Shown in pieces: positions 25,736-38,582 of a stretch of 43,179 bases of DNA (the stretch's first letter is position 1; every line of letters begins with the position of its first letter). The position numbers and the translations under genes were made by a program. A model generated the notes under the pieces. The model was not told the DNA's origin and did not search any database. It saw nothing but the letters and a program-made list of their open reading frames with translations. Source of the DNA: a virus (Duplodnaviria; Heunggongvirae; Uroviricota; Caudoviricetes); IMG/VR virus record IMGVR_UViG_2561511241_000008, positions 1 to 43,179 of that record, one strand, 5' to 3'.

Positions 25736-26203
25736 TCATCGAAGGCATTGCGTCCTGATGTATTCCTGAAGCGTTCTCAGTGCTGTTTGGTCGCGGATAA
25801 TTCCGTCCCGGACACCGAGAACGTTTCGTCCAGCAACTGGAGAGAGTTCGACGGTGGCATCATTGCCCATGCCGGAGGCGCTGGAGGTTTCGGCTGAGGA
25901 TGGCACAGGGCATTTTCCTTTGACGAGCACCCTGCCACCATTATCAAGCTTGCGCCGAAGAGCATCATTTTCAGTTTTCGCATCAGCTAACTCCTTCGTG
26001 TATTTAGCATCGAGTGCATCAGCAGAACGCTGGCGCTGCTGCATGTCAGTAATGGTGGCGGTCGCCTGCTTCAGCTCACTGACTTTTTTATCGCGCTGTT
26101 CTTTGTAGGCGATGGCGTTATCACGGTAATGATTAACAGCCCATGACAGGCAGACGATGATGCAGATAACCAGAGCGGAGATAATCGCGGTGACTCTGCT
26201 CAT
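25736..26203 (-). CDS. Rz: Rz i-spanin
   Basis: N-terminus [30 protein letters not shown] matches lambda Rz; C-terminal half diverges. Confidence 0.85.
25777..25983 (-). CDS. Rz1: Rz1 o-spanin lipoprotein (embedded in Rz, +1 frame)
   Basis: lipobox MVAGCSS, proline-rich; embedded inside Rz. Confidence 0.7.
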
Positions 26204-26676
26204 ACCTCAATCTCTCTGACCGTTCCGCCAGCCTCTTTGAATTTTGCAATCAGGCTGTCAGCCTTATGCTCGAACTGGCCATAACCAGCGCCCGGCAGTG
26301 AAGCCCATATATTGCTGCAACGGTCGATAGCCTGACGGATATCACCGCGATCAATCATCGGCAAAGCGCCACGCTCCTTAATCTGCTGCAGCGCAACAGC
26401 GTCCTGGCTTTTGGGAGAGAAGTCTTTCAGGCCAAGCTGCTTACGGTAAGCATCCCACCAACGGGAAAGAAGCTGGTAACGTCCGGCTGCTGTTGATTTG
26501 AGTTTGGGGTTTAGCGTGACAAGTTTGCGAGGGTGATCGGAGTAATCAGTGAATAGCTCTCCGCCAACAATGACGTCATAACCGTGATTTCTGGTTTTCT
26601 GTCGTCCGTTATCTGTTCCCTCTGACCACGCCAGCATATCGAGGAACGCCTTACGTTGATTATTGATTTCCACCAT
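26200..26676 (-). CDS. R: Endolysin R (lambda-type lytic transglycosylase)
   Basis: [35 protein letters not shown]... near-identical to lambda R as recalled. Confidence 0.9.
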
Positions 26677-26983
26677 CTTCTACTCCGGCTTTTTTAGCAG
26701 CGAAGCGTTTGATAAGCGAACCAATCGAGTCAGTACCGATGTAGCCGATGAACACGCTCGTTATATAAGCGAGATTGCTACTTAGTCCGGCGAAGTCGAG
26801 AAGGTCACGAATGAACCAGGCGATAATGGCGCACATCGTTGCGTCGATTACTGTTTTTGTAAACGCACCGCCATTATATCTGCCGCGAAGGTACGCCATT
26901 GCAAACGCAAGGATTGCCCCGATGCCTTGTTCCTTTGCCGCGAGAATGGCGGCTAACAGGTCATGTTTTTCTGGCATCTTCAT
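26660..26983 (-). CDS. S: Holin S (lambda S107/S105 dual-start)
   Basis: [39 protein letters not shown]... matches lambda S. Confidence 0.9.
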
Positions 26984-27380
26984 GTCTTACCCCCAATAAG
27001 GGGATTTGCTCTATTTAATTAGGAATAAGGTCGATTACTGATAGAACAAATCCAGGCTACTGTGTTTAGTAATCAGATTTGTTCGTGACCGATATGCACG
27101 GGCAAAACGGCAGGAGGTTGTTAGCGCGACCTCCTGTCACCCGCTTTCACGAAGATCATGTGTAGAAGGCCGCAGCGTAACTATCACTGATGAATTCAGG
27201 ATAGCCAGTGGATACGGCTCAGTTTGGGTTGTGCTGTTGCTGGGCGGCGATGACGCCTGTACGCATTTGGTGATCCGGTTCTGCTTCCGGTATTCGCTTA
27301 ATTCAGCACAACGGAAAGAGCACTCAATGCATTTAAACCAAGCCCCATAAAGGAGAATGCTCTTACCTGTTGCACAGATA

Positions 27381-27440
27381 TAAAAAATCCCGAAACCGTT
27401 ATGCAGGCTCTAACTATTACCTGCGAACTGTTTCGGGATT
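27381..27440 (-). terminator. tR'-like late terminator (end of short pR' transcript)
   Basis: 10-bp stem ATCCCGAAAC/GTTTCGGGAT followed on minus strand by U6; matches lambda tR' context. Confidence 0.75.
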
Positions 27441-27574
27441 GCATTTTGCAGACCTCTCAGCCTGCGATGGTTGGAGTTCCAGACGATACGTCGAAGTGAC
27501 CAACTAGGCGGAATCGGTAGTAAGCGCCGCCTCTTTTTATCTCACTACCACAACGAGCGAATTAACCCATCGTT

Positions 27575-27609
27575 GGGTCAAATTTACCCAACTTTATTCA
27601 AAAAGTCAA
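27575..27609 (-). promoter_or_regulatory. Late promoter pR' (qut region)
   Basis: minus-strand TTGACT (27604-27609), 17-bp spacer, TAAATT (27581-27586), just downstream of Q stop. Confidence 0.75.
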
Positions 27610-27651
27610 TATCATGCCGTTAATATGTTGCCATCCGTGGCAATCATGCTG

Positions 27652-28275
27652 CTAACGTGTGACCGCATTCAAAATGTTGTCTGCGATTGACTCTTCTTTG
27701 TGGCATTGCACCACCAGAGCGTCATACAGCGGCTTAACAGTGCGTGACCAGGTGGGTTGGGTAAGATTTGGGATTAGCATCGTCACAGCGCGATATGCGG
27801 CGCTTGCTGGCATCCTTGAATAGCCGACACCTTTGCATCTTCCGCATTCTTTCTCAACAACTCTCCCCCACTGCTCTGTTTTTGCTATATCAACCGCACG
27901 GCCTGTACCGTGACAATCTCTGCATCTTGCGCCAGGCGTCGCGGCACTACGGCAATAATCCGCATAAGCGAATGTTGCGAGCACTTGCAGTACCTTTGCC
28001 TTAGTATTTCCTTCGAGCTTTGCCACACCACGGTATTTCCCCGATACCTTGTGTGCAAATTGCATCAGATAGTTGATAGCCTTTTGTTTGTCGTTCTGGC
28101 TGAGTTCGTGCTTACCACAGAATGCAGCCATTCCGAATCCGGCTTGTGATTGCGCCATCCCCATAGCAGCCATCACATCAGTACCGGAAAGAGAGTCAGA
28201 AGCCGTGGCCCGTGGTGAGTCACTCATCATCGGGCTTTTTGGCGAATGAAATTTAGCCACGCTTTCGAGTCTCAT
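27652..28275 (-). CDS. Q: Late antiterminator Q (lambda-type)
   Basis: 207 aa; cysteine cluster CRDCHGTG...CGRCKGVG; position upstream of pR'. Confidence 0.9.
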
Positions 28276-28937
28276 GCGCCTTCTCCCTGTACCTGAATCA
28301 ATGTGAGATTTCCGCAGAACACTGCCCCAGTATCGATATACATCTGGTTGGCAAATTTGAGTGGTTTCACTGCTGGCGTATGACCAAAGATGAACGTGTC
28401 CGCGCCTTTGATTTCTTTCACGATCCCGTCTTGTGAGTTGCTGATTCGTTCGCGGTTCCAGATTACCTGCTGATGATCAACTGGCTTTCCAAACTCGTAT
28501 TCGTCACAAGGATAATCGGCGTGGCAGATGACATATTTTTTATCTTTGCTCACCAGTTCGATGATTAACGGAAGTTCATCTGCTTTATGGGCAAGAGCTT
28601 TAGCCAGAATTTCTTTGTCGTAATCGAGATTAAAGAACCAGCCACCGCCATTAAGCATCCAGTGATTGACGTTTCCTCGCTCTGATAAGCCATCAATCAT
28701 CATTTGCTCATGGTTTCCACGTACAGCTCTGAACCAGGGGAATGTGATTAATTCCAGGCATTCGACGTTCTCTGTACCGCGATCGACCAAATCGCCAACC
28801 GAGATAAGCAGGTCTTTTTTGGTGTCGAATCCTATCGTCTCCAGTTTTTTCATCAGGTTCGTGTAGCATCCGTGCAGATCGCCAACTACCCAAATATTTC
28901 GGTATTTGCTGCCATCAATTCTTTCGTAATAGCGCAT
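28272..28937 (-). CDS. Ser/Thr protein phosphatase (lambda NinI-like)
   Basis: [24 protein letters not shown] and GNHE metallophosphatase motifs; ORF 28272-29012, internal start preferred. Confidence 0.85.
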
Positions 28938-29121
28938 CTCTTTCACTCCATCCGCGATGAACCATAAGAACGTCGTTGACGATGGCGTGCATTTTCCCGT
29001 CTTTATCATCAACGTATTTTCTGACCGTACAGCGACTACATTTCAGTCTGCGTGCTACTTCTGTCTGGTTTCCGTATGCTTCAACGAGCATGTCTGGAAT
29101 GGTTTTTACTGAGAACGTCAT
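28915..29121 (-). CDS. ninH: NinH
   Basis: 68 aa matching lambda NinH as recalled. Confidence 0.75.
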
Positions 29122-29729
29122 GCGGCCTCACTTCTGCTATTTCGCAGGTCTTTGAGTTTCTGTTGGTACTCTGCCTTGATCGCCTTGCACTCTTCGACAG
29201 TCCAGCGATGGCGGTTATGGTTTGATTCGATTTCGTCTACTGCTTCCTGCCCGATACGGCTAATCAGTTCGACGCGATACGGAACGAGATTTCCGCTTTT
29301 GTGCTGGTTGCACACCACGCATTGCTTGTGAATATTGCGTTCATCAAATCGGAGTTGAGGTGCCGCAGCAGTTGTCCGGTAATGTCCGGCATCCCACTGA
29401 GCAGACGTGATCGTTCCGCATGAGATACATGGTAAGTCGCGGTCTCTTTCTCTGATGAAGGCGTTTACGGCTTGTTGGACTTGTTTAATCCAGTAACTGC
29501 GGGGCTTTAAGGCGAGTTTTCGAATCTTAAGTTTATCTTTCTGTTTCTGCTCCTCTCGTCGTCGTTTCTTCTCTGCTGCTTTTTCCGCTTTTTCGCGTTC
29601 TTTGCTTCGTCGTTCGAGTGCTATCTTTGTTCCACACTCTGGAGAGCACCACCACTGATTAGCGAATGCAGGGTGAAACCATTCCCGACATTCTTCGTTT
29701 TTACATCGTCTTCGCGCTGGTTTAGCCAT
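29118..29729 (-). CDS. ninG: NinG (Rap-like recombination protein)
   Basis: [33 protein letters not shown]... matches lambda NinG; ATG at 29729 preferred. Confidence 0.85.
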
Positions 29730-29898
29730 CATCTTCTTCCTCGTACATTGAGCTATTCGGATCACTCATAAGTTCTGCGCAACAGTGCTCACACACGTGA
29801 ACTTCCAGTACATGCAGCTTCTGACCGCAGTTAGCACACGTTAAAGCTCGCTCGACGCTTTCTTTCTGGTATTGAAGGGATTGGGATGGGCTAAGCAT
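29722..29898 (-). CDS. ninF: NinF
   Basis: hand translation [58 protein letters not shown]; below ORF-track cutoff. Confidence 0.7.
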
Positions 29899-32847: not shown

Positions 32848-33731
32848 GCTATCCCCCTGTCTGCAAACTTCCCTTCCCGTACTCCCGTTAACGAATCTTC
32901 CCTCAGCAGGTAATCAAAATCTGCCGTCCAGCCAGTGTCGTTGTCTCCGAAGTAAAACGGCTTGGCCTGATGTACAAACGCCCTGACATACGCTCTGAAA
33001 CCGTCCACGTTTGGCGTTTTCAGTTGCGGGATGATTTTCTTCAGGCGGCGTTTGCGTTTCTCGTTGACCGCAACAGCGTGTGGCAGTCTGTCACCGACTT
33101 CGGTGTTGTAGGCGTTCAGGAAGGATTCGTAGTCGATTCGTTCTGCCTTGCGACGTTCATGTTTAACCTGCCCATCGCCTCCCCCATTGGGGGGTAGGGG
33201 GGTATTATTTATATTCTTGTTAATACCTTCTTGTTCATGATGTGCGGTTGTTTGTGCGGCTTCATGTGCGCTTTCATGTGCGGCATGTACGCTGAAAGCC
33301 GCGCCATTACTGGCTTCATCATGTGCGGCATCATGTGCGGTTGTTTGTGCGGCTTCATGTGCGGGTGAATTGTCCATTTTTTGAGCATATTCATGGTAAT
33401 TTGTGATGGTGATCACACGACCTTTTTGCTTCTCTCCATCAATGGTGATCATCCCCTCTTTCACAAAAACCTGAAGCATCCGCTCAACCTGATCACGGCT
33501 TGCCGGCTTGCCATGCCTGTCGCATAACTGAAGACCTAAATCAGCTGCTGTCACAACCAGTTGACCGGGTTGCAGATGCCATTCATGACCTTTGAAATTC
33601 GCTTTGTATGGCTTTCTGGCGGCATTCAGGAGAAGGTTTTCCCACAGGGTGCGAAGATAAACATCTTTCGCCCATGACTGTTTCAGAATGCTCCGGTACA
33701 ACGGAATGTAACCAGTTTTCTGGTTCTCCAT
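32844..33731 (-). CDS. Replication initiator (lambda O / P22 gp18-like) containing ori
   Basis: ORF 32844-33791; AGGAG before internal ATG at 33731; internal iterons. Confidence 0.7.
33185..33370. repeat. Putative origin: iterons ([A/C]ATGTGCGG units) plus adjacent AT-rich tract and G/C-rich near-palindrome
   Basis: about eight tandem copies of a 9-10-bp unit (33236-33370) encoding His/Ala repeats in frame; AT-rich 33190-33235; CCCCCATTGGGGGG nearby. Confidence 0.6.
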
Positions 33732-33793
33732 CCTGTTGCTCCTGCGCTCGTGTGCGGCGCTGAAATCGTAGATTTTTGCTGTATTGCTCATAA

Positions 33794-34066
33794 CTACCTG
33801 CCTTGACGAAAGACCTTAAGAACATCGTTAAACTGACTTACGGATATGTCTTCTTTGAGCAGCTTTTCCAGAAATGCGTTTGGAATGAACGTATATCCCT
33901 CCTCTTTTGGTAGAGACGGGAGCAACGCCCTCGCCTCAGCCTTCAGAAGCTCAGTTCTGGCAACTTTCACAAAAGAGATTTGAGTTCTTTCATCAATGGA
34001 ACGAAGGAAGCGCAAACGCTTAGCTTCTTTGTGTGTATCAGGTGGATTAAAGCCTTTGTTTCGCAT
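33794..34066 (-). CDS. Hypothetical protein between cII and initiator
   Basis: ORF 33794-34234, internal start MRNKGF... preferred. Confidence 0.35.
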   Translation of the reverse strand: MRNKGFNPPDTHKEAKRLRFLRSIDERTQISFVKVARTELLKAEARALLPSLPKEEGYTFIPNAFLEKLLKEDISVSQFNDVLKVFRQGR

Positions 34067-34088
34067 ATAATTACCTCGTTGGATGTTG

Positions 34089-34388
34089 TTAAAATTCCAT
34101 TTGTATTTGATCAGAACGCTCGGTCTTGCACACCGGGCGTTTTTTATTGGTGAGTCCATCAAGCGCATACTTAAAAGCCCTGCTAATCGGACTGATGTCT
34201 GATGCCATTCCGAAAGCACACAAGACCGAAGCAATAAATCTCCAGTCCGTTCTGCTTATCTTCGATTCATGACAACCAATCATCTTTGCCAGACCGCGCT
34301 GGGTAAGCGTTGACAGGTTGATGAGTAAATCTGTTTCAGCGCGATCAACGTCGCGCTGTGATAGTTTGCTGTAACTTGTTTGTTCCAT
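34089..34388 (-). CDS. cII: CII-like transcriptional activator
   Basis: C-terminus ...TNKKRPVCKTERSDQIQMEF matches lambda CII tail. Confidence 0.8.
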   Translation of the reverse strand: MEQTSYSKLSQRDVDRAETDLLINLSTLTQRGLAKMIGCHESKISRTDWRFIASVLCAFGMASDISPISRAFKYALDGLTNKKRPVCKTERSDQIQMEF

Positions 34389-34452
34389 TTCTTACTATTT
34401 CCATAGGTAAATAATCACTAATACTCATCTTTCGATGAGTGCTTAATTAGTT

Positions 34453-34487
34453 ACCGCGTTGTCGGCGGTGCAGATTGATAAAGAGCG
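34453..34487 (-). promoter_or_regulatory. nutR candidate (boxA CGCTCTTTA, boxB hairpin with GACAA loop)
   Basis: minus-strand CGCTCTTTA at 34479-34487 immediately after cro stop; ACCGC-CGACAAC-GCGGT hairpin at 34453-34469. Confidence 0.45.
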
Positions 34488-34494
34488 GTGTTAC

Positions 34495-34704
<210 letters not shown>

Positions 34705-34721
34705 TTAGTACATGCAATCAT

Positions 34722-34785
34722 TATCACCGCTAGAGGTAAAATAGTCAACACGCACGGTGTTAGATATTTATCCCTTGCGGTGATA
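34722..34785. promoter_or_regulatory. Right operator OR1-OR2-OR3 with pR/pRM
   Basis: 17-mers at 34722-34738 (TATCACCGCTAGAGGTA), 34746-34762, 34769-34785; pR -35 TTGACT / -10 GATAAT on minus strand. Confidence 0.85.
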
Positions 34786-34792
34786 GATTTAA

Positions 34793-35509
<717 letters not shown>

Positions 35510-35624
35510 TTCCAATTGTGATTTATGAGCAGTCAATTCCGCCAGATTGGTGATGATGACAAGCCGCTATAGCTTAGCTTCAACATGAATACATTCATCG
35601 TAACCACAGCAGGGAGTTTAACGA

Positions 35625-36626
35625 ATGAATTCTATTGAAAATCATGATGTTTATGTGTATACAGGCGATATTCATCGTGATGGTTATCTTGATCTCACCA
35701 ATGAAATCAAGAAACGTAAGTCACAACATGGATTAAAAGAGAATGTTATCTTCTGTGTTGCTACTTATGGCGGTGATCCAAATGCAGGTTATCGTATAGG
35801 TAGAGCTCTACAACACCATTATGAAACGGTAACACTTTTAGTTGTTGGACCATGCAAAAGTGCTGGTACACTAATAGCTATAGCAGCCAATAAACTTGTT
35901 ATTGGTGACATGGGGGAGCTTGGGCCATTAGATATCCAACTGAAAAAAAACGATGAAATAGGTGAGATGAGTTCTGGTTTAGCTATCATGACAGCTCTTG
36001 ATGCTCTAAAGGAACGCTCTATTTCAGCGTTTAACTCACACCTTGTTAAGATAAGATACGAAAATCAGATAAGTACTAAAATGTCTGCTGATATCGCGAC
36101 CAGACTTACAGAAGCGTTGATAGCACCTATGGCCGCACAGATAGATCCAATAAAGCTTGGTGAACATCAGCGCGCAATGAGTATAGCTATCACTTATGGC
36201 CAACGATTAGCAGACAAACCAAGCAGCCTAAAAGAAGGGGCGTTAGGCAAACTAATAGCCTCATATCCTTCACATGGATTTGTTATAGACAGAAAAGAAG
36301 CCAAGGAACTTTTCAAGTGTGTTGAGCATCCTAAAGGTATAACAGAAATACTCTATAATCTTTTCTGTGACAAAATTCATAATGGTGACATTCCAACATT
36401 TGGAAAGCCGAGGGTTATTGATTGTACAACGTATCTACAAAAAGAGGAAAAAGCTAATGCCGAAGAATCTGCAACCGGAGATGGAAATTCTCAACAAGAT
36501 GTTGGAAAGCCAGATCCAAGAAGGTCACGATCTGGCAAAAAAAGCGGAACAACACCTGAACGAGATCAAGAAGGAATTGGAGCCGTATCAATTCAACCAC
36601 CAGATGAACAGCAACCTAATGCATGA
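35625..36626 (+). CDS. ClpP/SppA-fold serine peptidase-like protein in rexAB slot
   Basis: motifs TYGGDPNAGYRIGRAL and VVGPCKSAGTLIAIAA resemble ClpP/SppA-family active-site region; AGGGAG 8 nt before ATG; low-complexity C-terminal tail. Confidence 0.55.
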   Translation: MNSIENHDVYVYTGDIHRDGYLDLTNEIKKRKSQHGLKENVIFCVATYGGDPNAGYRIGRALQHHYETVTLLVVGPCKSAGTLIAIAANKLVIGDMGELGPLDIQLKKNDEIGEMSSGLAIMTALDALKERSISAFNSHLVKIRYENQISTKMSADIATRLTEALIAPMAAQIDPIKLGEHQRAMSIAITYGQRLADKPSSLKEGALGKLIASYPSHGFVIDRKEAKELFKCVEHPKGITEILYNLFCDKIHNGDIPTFGKPRVIDCTTYLQKEEKANAEESATGDGNSQQDVGKPDPRRSRSGKKSGTTPERDQEGIGAVSIQPPDEQQPNA

Positions 36627-36642
36627 TCTCTTTGCTCTGTAA
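36457..36642 (+). CDS. Small 61-aa ORF overlapping the 3' tail of the peptidase-like gene
   Basis: AAGAGGA 8 nt upstream of ATG at 36457; different frame from upstream gene. Confidence 0.4.
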   Translation: MPKNLQPEMEILNKMLESQIQEGHDLAKKAEQHLNEIKKELEPYQFNHQMNSNLMHDLFAL

Positions 36643-36654
36643 TTAATTCCTCAC

Positions 36655-36680
36655 AACCCGGCCTCAGCGCCGGGTTTTCT
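36655..36680 (+). terminator. tImm-like intrinsic terminator
   Basis: AACCCGGC-CTCAGC-GCCGGGTT-TT; same hairpin as recalled for lambda tImm. Confidence 0.65.
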
Positions 36681-36833
36681 TTGCCTCTCGCTCCCCTTTC
36701 CCAACAACACATAACCATTTGTATTTATTGGAAAACTAATAGATACAACTTGCTAAACAGTGCAATTCTGATCCCTCACCTACCTAACAATTCACCCCTG
36801 CAAAAAATAAATCCATATAAAAAACATACAGAT

Positions 36834-36896
36834 AACCATCTGCGGTGATAAATTATCTCTGGCGGTGTTGACACAAATACCACTAGCGGTGATACT
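36834..36896 (+). promoter_or_regulatory. Left operator OL3-OL2-OL1 with pL
   Basis: 17-mers at 36834-36850, 36854-36870, 36878-36894 (TACCACTAGCGGTGATA); -35 TTGACA 36868-36873, -10 GATACT 36891-36896. Confidence 0.85.
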
Positions 36897-36942
36897 AAAC
36901 ACATCAGCAGGAAGCTGGAAGCCAAACGGAACAGATTGGCAG

Positions 36943-36976
36943 GCTCTTTAACTTCGATGGGGCGCTGACAAAGCGC
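36943..36976 (+). promoter_or_regulatory. nutL (boxA GCTCTTTAA, boxB GCGCTGACAAAGCGC, P22-type)
   Basis: boxB hairpin with GACAA loop at 36962-36976, boxA-like 36943-36951, between pL and N. Confidence 0.6.
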
Positions 36977-37095
36977 AAACAGATACCAAACGAGATGGGT
37001 TTGGCGGTGATGTGAATTGCAGCAGCAACGACAGCAACCAGAAGATCAGCATCTGGCGCATTACCACCAAAGCCATTTCACATGAGGAAAATATC

Positions 37096-37404
37096 ATGAC
37101 GGTAATCGTGTACGGAAAATCAACATTTGCAGGAAATGCCAAAACTCGCCGTCATGAGCGGCGCAGAAAGCTGGCTATCGAGCGTGATGCTATATGCAAC
37201 ATCATCGATTCGATCTTCGGCACAGACAGTGAGGAACCTGTTCAGGAAGCCCCGAGAAAGCGTTTAAGCATTTCTGAAAAAGCAATATCACTCGGCATCA
37301 TTAGCAAATCAAATACAGATGCGAATAGCGGAAGCGTTTGTTTGCCTGAAGTTGCACTGTATGCTGCTGGTTACAGAAGGCAAAAACTAATTACAGCGAG
37401 GTAA
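37096..37404 (+). CDS. N: N antiterminator (P22 gp24-like, arginine-rich motif)
   Basis: MTVIVYGKSTFAGNAKTRRHERRRKLAIERD... matches P22 gene 24 product as recalled; GAGGA 7 nt upstream; ORF-track start at 37012 (GTG) rejected. Confidence 0.8.
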   Translation: MTVIVYGKSTFAGNAKTRRHERRRKLAIERDAICNIIDSIFGTDSEEPVQEAPRKRLSISEKAISLGIISKSNTDANSGSVCLPEVALYAAGYRRQKLITAR

Positions 37405-37406
37405 AA

Positions 37407-37685
37407 ATGAAGCCTAGCATAACAATCAAGCCAGCGAGAGATAATAGCAGGAACCGCCGCAGAGAGGCCAGGAAGGCAGAAAGAGCAGAGAAGGAAAACA
37501 AGAGCCGGGAGGAGAGAAAGGCAGAGATTTTGGAAAAAGGAGGATTGGCTGCCGTGAGGGGTGAAAAAGCAGCTGAATTAGCAGTAGCTCACGAAAAGAC
37601 AGAGATTGACAATAATTCTGGTGGAGATGCAATGTTTAAAGTTGTCAATCACGCCCATCAACGAAACCCCAAAAAGAAATGGTAA
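37407..37685 (+). CDS. Hypothetical highly charged 92-aa protein
   Basis: Lys/Glu/Arg-rich ORF directly after N. Confidence 0.4.
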   Translation: MKPSITIKPARDNSRNRRREARKAERAEKENKSREERKAEILEKGGLAAVRGEKAAELAVAHEKTEIDNNSGGDAMFKVVNHAHQRNPKKKW

Positions 37686-37688
37686 TCA

Positions 37689-37710
37689 ACCCGTCCAAGA
37701 CGGGTTTTTT
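37689..37710 (+). terminator. Intrinsic terminator (tL1-like)
   Basis: ACCCGTC-CAA-GACGGGT followed by T6. Confidence 0.65.
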
Positions 37711-37742
37711 ATTGCAAGCAAACCACTTATTTGAGGTGAGAT

Positions 37743-38213
37743 ATGACAAAATCATGGAGCGTACCTTTTCCTGAATCAGAAACTGAACATGAGGGAATGC
37801 CTGTTTTCTGGAGATTCCAAGCGACAGTTGAAGAAGATGGAATCAAAATATTCGCACTTCAATATATAGCTTTTCATCAGACAGAGCATTATGCATGGTT
37901 GGTTCCTGCGCATTGGATTGTTAATTTTAAACCAGCACCAAATCAGTGGTTACAGGAATGGAAACAAAGGAGAAATAGATATGCAATTAAGAAAGTAGCA
38001 AAAAATGCAGAAAGATCTTTTGCATTCCCAACGAAGAAACTTGCTATTGAAAGTTTATTGCGCCGGAAGAAATACCATTTAATGAGGATAAAACAAGATT
38101 TGGCTGTTGTATCAACTCTTGTTGATGGGATGAAAAATATTGATACATCAACACCAGATATTGAATATAACTTTGGACACAACCAAGAAACAGAAAATTG
38201 GGTATTCTACTAG
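37743..38213 (+). CDS. Hypothetical 156-aa protein (AT-rich moron)
   Basis: own RBS GAGGTGAG; AT-rich coding sequence. Confidence 0.5.
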   Translation: MTKSWSVPFPESETEHEGMPVFWRFQATVEEDGIKIFALQYIAFHQTEHYAWLVPAHWIVNFKPAPNQWLQEWKQRRNRYAIKKVAKNAERSFAFPTKKLAIESLLRRKKYHLMRIKQDLAVVSTLVDGMKNIDTSTPDIEYNFGHNQETENWVFY

Positions 38214-38259
38214 GCCGCATAGTCGGCCTTTATTTTTGGCACAAACAACAGAGGTGAAT

Positions 38260-38394
38260 ATGAACGCAGTTGAATTTACAAAATGGATGGCAGAGCAAGA
38301 TATCACAGGAGCCGACGAAAAGGCTGTGTACTACATGGCTCTGCTATGGATTCACAAAGCAAAAGAGGCTGCAAATGCTCTTGGAGATAAGTAA
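38260..38394 (+). CDS. Hypothetical 44-aa protein
   Basis: GAGGTGA before ATG at 38260; inside ORF 38140-38394. Confidence 0.3.
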   Translation: MNAVEFTKWMAEQDITGADEKAVYYMALLWIHKAKEAANALGDK

Positions 38395-38582
38395 TGAAAG
38401 TAAAAATAACTGCTTCTAATACCAGTTTTGTTAGTGCTGGTGATATTACAGAAGTAATAACAAACCATGATGGAACCCAAGTTATGTGGTCTGATTTTTG
38501 TAAAAGATATGAGCGAGTTAGTTGGTGTAAACTCGTATGGGGCGTCGAATACGAAGAATTACCTGAAATGCATGACGAATAA
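38394..38582 (+). CDS. Hypothetical 62-aa protein
   Basis: ORF only. Confidence 0.35.
   Translation: MKVKITASNTSFVSAGDITEVITNHDGTQVMWSDFCKRYERVSWCKLVWGVEYEELPEMHDE

Follow-up and report, generated by a model that had tools for sequence, protein, structure and literature searches.

In the P22 group of lambdoid phages, a single specificity of the N antiterminator and its boxB RNA is combined with several repressor and operator specificities, as the comparison of phages L/ST64T with P22 illustrates. Phages P22 and L share the N-terminal 75 residues of gp24 and apparently identical boxBs and have different immC regions (bioRxiv 10.1101/2020.10.05.325894), and the P22-type gene 24 has been listed with the P22, L, ST104, and Scho1 repressor types (PMC2629481, Table 1). 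The cI and Cro proteins are reported to transfer together as a unit (PMC9836094). The P22, L, ST104, and Scho1 combinations belong to Salmonella, whereas in the DNA analysed here, the virus record IMGVR_UViG_2561511241_000008 of IMG/VR at its full length of 43,179 nucleotides (hereafter, the window), the partner of the P22-type N is a lambda repressor in a prophage of Escherichia coli. We conclude, with a probability of about 0.9, that the region around these genes forms the core of early regulation in an intact E. coli prophage of the P22-like (Lederbergvirus) type, in which a lambda-specificity immunity cassette is combined with P22-specificity N antitermination. The lambda repressor/operator cassette sits between P22-type N recognition sites, which is ordinary lambdoid phage mosaicism.

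In the lambda immP22 hybrids attributed to Botstein and Herskowitz (in 1974) and to Hilliker and Botstein (in 1976), the immunity and N/nut modules of lambda and P22 were reportedly exchangeable on condition that N matched nut, and gene 24 with the nut sites is said to have moved together with P22 immC in these laboratory constructs. The natural crossover described here differs from them by separating immunity from N/nut, and its composition is the opposite one.

The other close relatives are the wild coliphages with lambda immunity, namely HK97, mEp234, HK106, CL707, HK244, HK542, HK544, and mEp332 (GenBank EF120455-61; Degnan et al. 2007). They carry the same cI/cro/operator cassette as the window at about 93% nucleotide identity, including the T3A change in cI and the C-to-T change in oR1, and share with it a conserved Timm-oL-pL block and a variable rexAB slot. 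In mEp234 and HK106, the latter having the same 4,202-bp immunity record layout as the former, the two junction sequences that link the lambda cassette to a non-lambda N are those of the window. However, the gp24-type N occurs in none of these phages: five have the N and nut of lambda, and mEp234 and HK106 have another N type. HK542 and HK544 are moreover classified in the Hendrixvirinae, which are long-tailed phages, whereas the window genome has P22-type virion genes. Lambda immunity with a non-lambda N is not unusual for lambdoid phages, and mEp234, HK106, and HK97 are examples already in GenBank; the one novelty of the window is that, in a genome with P22-like virion genes, the lambda cassette is paired with an N of the gp24 type.

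Results

Whole-genome blastn aligned the window with P22 at 71-96% identity in segments matching the terminase, head-completion, injection, ant/tailspike, nin, and erf/abc genes; the terminase, head-completion, and injection segments (77-88%) place its virion genes among those of the P22-like phages. The window is oriented opposite to the standard lambda map. Over 15299-43179 it matches, in blocks of 96-99.9% identity with two short gaps, a prophage of the pig isolate rl0044, which is a coherent 40-kb element annotated with P22 coat, scaffold, portal, gp4, and gp10 genes. The end of the rl0044 prophage adjoins torI/dsdC, which we take to be the argW-side attachment region used by Sf6/HK620-type phages. 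Since the virion genes, erf/abc, and the argW-side location are all P22-like, it is more natural to speak of a lambda immunity cassette in a P22-like phage than of a P22 N in a lambda-like phage, and the best description of the element is that of a coliphage of the P22-like group with the immunity of lambda.

Sequences of lambda type form two blocks in this background, 34481-35505 (cro, oR, and cI; 93% identity) and 36655-36915 (Timm, oL, and pL; 90%). The cro gene (34495-34695, minus strand) encodes 66 amino acids with one change from lambda (V55I) and matches Pfam PF09048 at 2.5e-34. The cI repressor gene (34796-35509, plus strand), which has 93% nucleotide identity with lambda, HK97, mEp234, and others, encodes 237 amino acids with the Pfam HTH_3 and Peptidase_S24 domains, and 12 of these residues differ from lambda. 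The operators oR1 (34722-34738), oR2 (34746-34762), and oR3 (34769-34785) lie within 34720-34785, together with pRM and pR (−35 at 34743-34748 and −10 at 34720-34725, minus strand), and oL3 (36834-36850), oL2 (36854-36870), and oL1 (36878-36894) precede the leftward transcript on the plus strand. A promoter scan found pR and, with a score of 10 of 12, pL (−35 TTGACA at 36868-36873, −10 GATACT at 36891-36896, plus strand), and alignment with annotated lambda-type starts puts the first transcribed base at A36903 (plus strand). The cI operon ends at an intrinsic terminator (36655-36676, plus strand) found by a terminator scan inside the second lambda-like block; its equivalent is annotated as “Timm” in the GenBank records of the wild lambda-immunity phages. 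The original prediction that pL and the operators are lambda-like is borne out by the 90% match over 36655-36915 and by the tripartite oL and oR, in which four of the six operators (oL2, oL3, oR2, and oR3) are identical to those of lambda.

The other two operators, oL1 and oR1, differ from lambda by one and the same C-to-T substitution next to the centre of the operator. In oR1 this substitution occurs together with T3A, located in the N-terminal arm of cI, in five of the six wild lambda-immunity phages compared, while lambda and HK544 lack both; these are natural variants of the lambda immunity type. We had considered the pair as a new case of repressor–operator co-variation and rejected this, as both changes are already present in the wild phages.

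The pairing of N and immunity would have no functional meaning if the element were a decaying, non-functional prophage remnant, a reading that could draw on the fact that RefSeq calls N a “hypothetical protein” in most genomes. We consider it very improbable, as the regulatory open reading frames (ORFs) cII, cro, cI, and N are intact, and so are the six operators, the two promoters, and the two nut sites; conservation of the module between strains is 99-100%; and the annotation of the rl0044 prophage shows replication, nin, Q, lysis, and head genes in one contiguous series, with the early-left genes present as far as torI.

The N gene (37096-37404, plus strand) is the first gene of the pL transcript and encodes 102 amino acids. 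It matches the Pfam family PF25694 (N_peptide; 1.9e-38, 131 bits against a cut-off of 27.9) and phrog_271, “anti-termination protein N-like” (2e-35). The protein is 67% identical to P22 gp24 overall, and residues 6-31 are identical, a span that includes the arginine-rich RNA-binding motif NAKTRRHERRRKLAIER at residues 14-30. The similarity to lambda N is weak (BLASTP; 27% identity over 52 residues from the arginine-rich motif on, E 0.009), so that the assignment of N to the P22 type holds against the alternative that it matches lambda N. A phmmer search of the PDB chains gave no meaningful match to N, probably because the P22 N entry is a peptide of about 20 residues. In that entry, the nuclear magnetic resonance structure 1A4T of the P22 N-boxB complex, the C of the GACAA loop is flipped outwards, against the peptide side chains His7 and Arg11 (PMC12550061). 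In our numbering of the full protein these are His20 and Arg24, which the window N also has.

The two RNA sites are likewise those of P22. In nutL (36942-36976, plus strand), boxA GGCTCTTTAA (36942-36951) is followed by a spacer and by boxB GCGCTGACAAAGCGC (36962-36976), which is identical to the P22 nutL boxB and folds into a 5-bp stem with a GACAA loop (−8.5 kcal/mol, z −2.8). The candidate nutR noted earlier after cro (34453-34487, minus strand) is real: it consists of boxA CGCTCTTTA (34479-34487) and boxB ACCGCCGACAACGCGGT (34453-34469), the latter identical to the annotated P22 nutR boxB and folding, as in P22, into a 5-bp stem with the 7-nucleotide loop CGACAAC, where GACAA is closed by a C-C mismatch (−6.7 kcal/mol, z −2.9). 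The composite pattern GCTCTTTA-N(8-14)-SCGCYGACAAMGCGS has exactly two matches in the 43-kb window, one per early operon and both in the transcribed orientation, with nutR between cro and cII; 100 shuffled sequences gave none, and the nut pair is therefore not a product of chance. A pattern with fixed spacing found no match, as the two spacers differ by 1 nucleotide, and Rfam has no family in 33500-38500 at E up to 1. The locus has the features of the P22 gp24 subtype of N: the P22-type arginine-rich motif, an N gene placed first in the pL operon after nutL, two nut sites, a boxB with the GACAA loop, and downstream terminators. All of the elements named in the original prediction were found where it had placed them or within 2 bases; the start codon of N is the ATG at 37096.

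These data bear on the possibility that the N/nut system is functionally of the HK97/H-19B type, as phages of that type also use boxB GCGCTGACAAAGCGC and can carry lambda immunity. Indeed, mEp234, a wild lambda-immunity phage whose N we take to be of the HK97 and H-19B type, has GCGCTGACAAAGCGC as its nutL boxB, and the C-terminus of its N (CLPNVALYAAGYRKSKQLTAR) resembles that of the window N (CLPEVALYAAGYRRQKLITAR). The RNA-binding motifs are nevertheless different: mEp234 N starts with MTRRTQFKGNSRSRRRERLKAKALANG, and the window N with GNAKTRRHERRRKLAIER, identical to P22. The nutR boxB is the CCGCCGACAACGCGG of P22, not the TCGCTGACAAAGCGA of mEp234, and both the spacing of boxA and boxB and the spacer sequence follow P22, which leaves the HK97/H-19B type with very little probability and the P22 type as the reading retained below.

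The lambda-type and P22-type sequences meet at two points. The junction between immunity and antitermination had been predicted to lie within roughly 60 bp of pL, and a three-way alignment with lambda and P22 sharpens it to 36902-36915 (plus strand). These are 14 shared bases, CATCAGCAGGAAGC, running from −1 to +13 relative to the pL start; lambda-specific sequence ends at base 36901, and P22-specific sequence starts at base 36916. The left junction thus stands where it was expected, but it is not the only one, since a second junction exists inside the boxA of nutR (34480-34487, minus strand; core CGCTCTTT). On this side the window is identical to mEp234 from cro through GCATAAGTAACACCGCTCTTT and follows P22 nearly base for base from CGCTCTTTA on. 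Both junctions fall in short sequences common to many lambdoid phages, which are the first 13 nucleotides of the pL transcript and the nutR boxA. The lambda-type cassette fills the interval between the nut sites and stops there, leaving only a few bases on the right and about 27 on the left.

Four different promoter/operator sets lie between the same pair of nutL and nutR, accompanied by a matching N: that of the window, that of Klebsiella phage phiKp_30 and a prophage of DH5alpha-labelled assemblies, that of an Stx2a phage, and that of P22. The four operator sets converge on CATCAGCAGGA at the left and on CGCTCTTTA at the right; the junctions are recurrent module boundaries.

In phiKp_30 (LC768498.2, 657-1258), nutR and nutL are about 540 bp apart with a cro-like gene between them, and the annotation shows no repressor gene in this interval. 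The record is labelled a “complete genome” and may derive from a temperate P22-like phage by deletion of its repressor.

To see how widely the joined interval is distributed, we used 5,426 complete E. coli genomes, of which 1,411 match some part of 36790-37404. The breakpoints were surveyed in 60 of the 1,416 E. coli records with a match, taken at even spacing. Lambda-type oL/pL matches ending at query positions 123-126 (window 36912-36915) made up 22 of them, and nearly all the others start at query positions 111-115 (window 36900-36904). Both halves are joined as in the window in about six chromosomes and one 2.2-kb record only. The full pL-to-N interval is 98.9-100% identical in five independent complete chromosomes from different hosts and 90.7% identical in a sixth, with a 100% match in rl0044, and is found in none of the 50,697 records of the phage collection. 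This recurrence in independent complete chromosomes indicates that the junction is real and not an assembly artefact: a mis-joining of reads from two co-resident lambdoid prophages has a practically negligible probability, for even if both junctions fall in sequences common to many prophages, where assemblers can switch, these shared sequences are just 8-14 bp long, far below read length, several complete chromosomes sequenced independently, from pig, beef, human, and bird isolates, have this very junction, and the match in rl0044 lies inside its coherent prophage.

Between nutL and the N gene, the 193-nucleotide leader of N folds as a whole (−66.7 kcal/mol, z −4.2) and contains a long-range stem in which 36992-37014 pairs with 37057-37079 (plus strand). 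The leaders of lambda, P22, mEp234, and the Stx2a phage, folded independently, pair the same two segments; the arms differ between phages and stay mutually complementary (5' GGUGAUGUG and 3' CGCAUUACC in the window, 5' GGGUGUGUG and 3' CACACACC in lambda, 5' ACUGGCG and 3' CGCCAGU in P22). This stem probably corresponds to the one that RNase III processes in the lambda leader and that holds nutL close to the ribosome-binding site of N. It is conserved in leaders of the lambda, P22, and HK97 types, and in the window, too, it probably brings nutL and this ribosome-binding site together.

Terminators for an antiterminated polymerase to override are clear on the left side. The terminator scan found an intrinsic terminator (37688-37706, plus strand; −14 kcal/mol, z −3.0), the analogue of tL1, directly 3' of the ORF that follows N, and transcription from pL to kil, cIII, and erf must cross it; a second terminator-like site lies at 38212-38229. 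The right side is less clear and offers only a stable hairpin between nutR and cII (34417-34451, minus strand; −15.5 kcal/mol, z −3.9), with the core ACUCAUC-GAAA-GAUGAGU followed by a U-rich stretch. The terminator scan did not call this hairpin a terminator. The DH5alpha-labelled prophage, phiKp_30, and the Stx2a phage conserve it after the same nutR, and it is a candidate tR1-region structure, which may be part of a tR1 equivalent.

The ORF directly downstream of N (37407-37685, plus strand; 92 amino acids) starts 2 nucleotides beyond the stop codon of N, is provided with a GAGG ribosome-binding site of its own, and is, judged by its sequence, a homologue of the HK022 transcription-arrest factor Nun. 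It matches phrog_5632, “Nun-like transcription termination factor” (1.5e-29), HK022 Nun (BLASTP, 1e-10), and the Nun chain N of PDB entry 6ALG (5e-5); no NCBIfam, Pfam, or PADLOC model matched. A tblastn search of the phage collection found nothing, probably because of low-complexity masking, as unmasked local tblastn recovers HK022 Nun. In the cryo-electron microscopy structure of Nun, the residues N97, H98, H100, R102, K106, K107, and W108 contact the beta-prime rudder, RNA, and DNA, and mutations in them impair arrest (PMC5386594). The C-terminus of the window protein (MFKVVNHAHQRNPKKKW) keeps all seven and with them the RNA-polymerase-binding motif; in the segment VVNHAHQRNP.KKW, the only polymerase or nucleic-acid contacts of that structure that are changed are H93 (F here) and R94 (K here). 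The corresponding motif VVNHAHQRNPKKKW is invariant in the 18 family members aligned.

The N-terminal arginine-rich motif SRNRRREARKAERAEK aligns with the SRDRRRIARWEKRIAY of Nun without its two aromatic residues (W33 and Y39, both K here), and the aromatic residues of the lambda N motif are also absent. The sequence RDNSRNRRRE in this motif is nearly invariant among nine aligned sequences; the family as a whole combines highly variable N-terminal motifs with an invariant D..VNHAH.R..KW end. This family is small: a word-indexed protein search gave 11 clusters, two of which carry a name, both being hypothetical, and a full hidden Markov model search gave only 24 clusters among 1.84 billion representative proteins. 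The allele of the window is present in 32 of the 5,426 E. coli genomes. Our literature searches for Nun homologues found work on HK022 only.

HK022 nun is said, in a report ascribed to King et al. in 2000, to have its own constitutive promoter. In the window, a promoter scan found no sigma-70-like promoter inside N. As the ORF starts 2-7 nucleotides after N in all three lineages examined, its position suggests that it is co-transcribed with N from pL. Two distant members (54% and 45% identical) also lie directly downstream of an N gene, and these N genes are of another type (MTRRT...GRRRERRA) with GAAA loops in their boxBs. By eye, no covariation of the Nun-like motif with the motif of the neighbouring N or with boxB was seen, and the same Nun-like motif occurs beside two N/boxB types; that it does not track the specificity of its neighbours argues that its target is not the nut of its own phage.

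One family member of 124 amino acids (P0025) has N-like N-terminal and middle parts (arginine-rich SRGRRRLKRKALQ and ...ERAAILFANEFN) and an end with the Nun motif (DAMYKVVNHAHQRNPKKKW). It looks like an N-type body fused to a Nun C-terminus, which suggests that N and Nun interconvert by exchange of their C-termini.

The module of N and the Nun-like gene also occurs in a lambdoid prophage of two DH5alpha-labelled assemblies (among them NZ_CP026085.1, 2300-4300) and of E. coli W, which one would not expect of a K-12 laboratory strain such as DH5alpha. An identification of the DH5alpha-labelled prophage as phi80 was dropped, as phi80 is not among the best phage matches listed for the cI/cro region of this prophage, which matches other coliphages such as Dewey and vB_EcoP-683R2.

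Several neighbouring genes complete the region. The similarity to lambda ends at the cI stop codon and restarts at 36655 (blastn), and the rexA/rexB slot between cI and Timm is filled by a non-lambda gene (35625-36626, plus strand) that encodes 333 amino acids with a weak signal of a ClpP/SDH-like serine-protease fold. It belongs to phrog_21683, has weak Pfam and NCBIfam matches below cut-off, and gave no match in PADLOC. This gene is not part of the antitermination system; it is expected to be expressed with cI in the lysogen and is a candidate lysogenic-conversion or exclusion gene. The cII gene (34089-34388, minus strand) encodes a CII-family protein that diverges from lambda cII and P22 c1 over most of its length, and its 3' end with the convergent oop-type terminator (34113-34143, plus strand) has an 87% match to lambda. 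Downstream of the tL1 analogue, an ORF of 156 amino acids (37743-38213, plus strand; phrog_1636) is bracketed by the terminator-like sites 37688-37706 and 38212-38229, as is typical of inserted “moron” genes. Farther away, a 3.9-kb block with the nin region, Q, and the lysis genes (25956-29864) is 96% identical to lambda 42297-46213, far closer to lambda than the P22-like sequence flanking it, and represents a second lambda-derived mosaic segment.

Discussion

The arrangement of the window suggests a mechanism that would follow the lines known from lambda and P22. Once cI is inactivated, pL and pR would fire, and each nascent early RNA would present the boxB hairpin and a boxA bound by NusB/NusE. 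As the product of the first pL gene, N would bind the GACAA-loop boxB by its arginine-rich helix (residues 14-30) as in 1A4T and, together with NusA and NusG, would make RNA polymerase resistant to termination. The resistant polymerase would then pass the left-hand terminators (37688-37706 and 38212-38229) and, on the right, the stretch close to nutR. Under such a mechanism N would have to match its two RNA sites, and the specificity of the repressor would be immaterial to N/nut; therefore, any cI/cro/operator cassette fitting between the nut sites would be exchangeable. The positions of the two junctions are explained in the same way, because the cassettes between the nut sites can be exchanged and N must stay together with its nut sites.

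Compared with P22 itself, the window has an identical RNA-binding motif in N, identical boxBs, and a near-identical boxA; the spacing and the position of these elements (N as the first pL gene, nutR just after cro) are alike, and the C-terminal motif LP.VALYAAG.R..K.ITAR is common to both N proteins. The differences are that the middle third of N is diverged, the leader from boxB to N is shorter in the window, the cassette between the nut sites is that of lambda and not P22 c2/cro, and gene 24 of P22 is followed by sieB/esc, whereas N is followed here by the Nun-like ORF.

Some points weigh against this picture of a P22-specific N working with lambda immunity. The divergence of N from gp24 at residues of about 43-80 means that its interactions with partners could differ. 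The first base of the nutL boxA (GGCTCTTTAA) is G and not C, a variant that CL707, mEp332, and HK544 also have. With one substitution in each of oL1 and oR1 and 12 in cI, the phage is likely, though not certain, to be exactly co-immune with lambda. Antitermination, Nus dependence, and lambda-type immunity are all inferred from identity to known sequences, and sequence cannot prove the direction of the exchange, that is, whether the cassette entered a P22-like genome or the reverse took place.

The mosaic itself changes little, being a precisely mapped case of the modular exchange that defines the lambdoid phages; the element could be of use in teaching or engineering as a natural P22-like phage with imm-lambda. 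Less ordinary is the predicted function of the Nun-like gene, the only element here worth a specialist’s bench test. Like HK022 Nun, its product has the C-terminal polymerase-binding motif and its gene is immediately followed by a terminator; unlike in HK022, which has no N, it follows an N gene. We propose tentatively, rating the idea a little below even odds, that the antitermination module holds two proteins with arginine-rich motifs and that Nun represents a small family of N-linked, probably pL-expressed factors, which arrest transcription on rival lambdoid phages or co-induced prophages of different nut specificity, HK022 being a special case that lost N. If the Nun-like protein arrests transcription on a defined boxB, the single known Nun would become a family with varied RNA specificities, which would suggest competition between co-resident prophages at the level of transcription.

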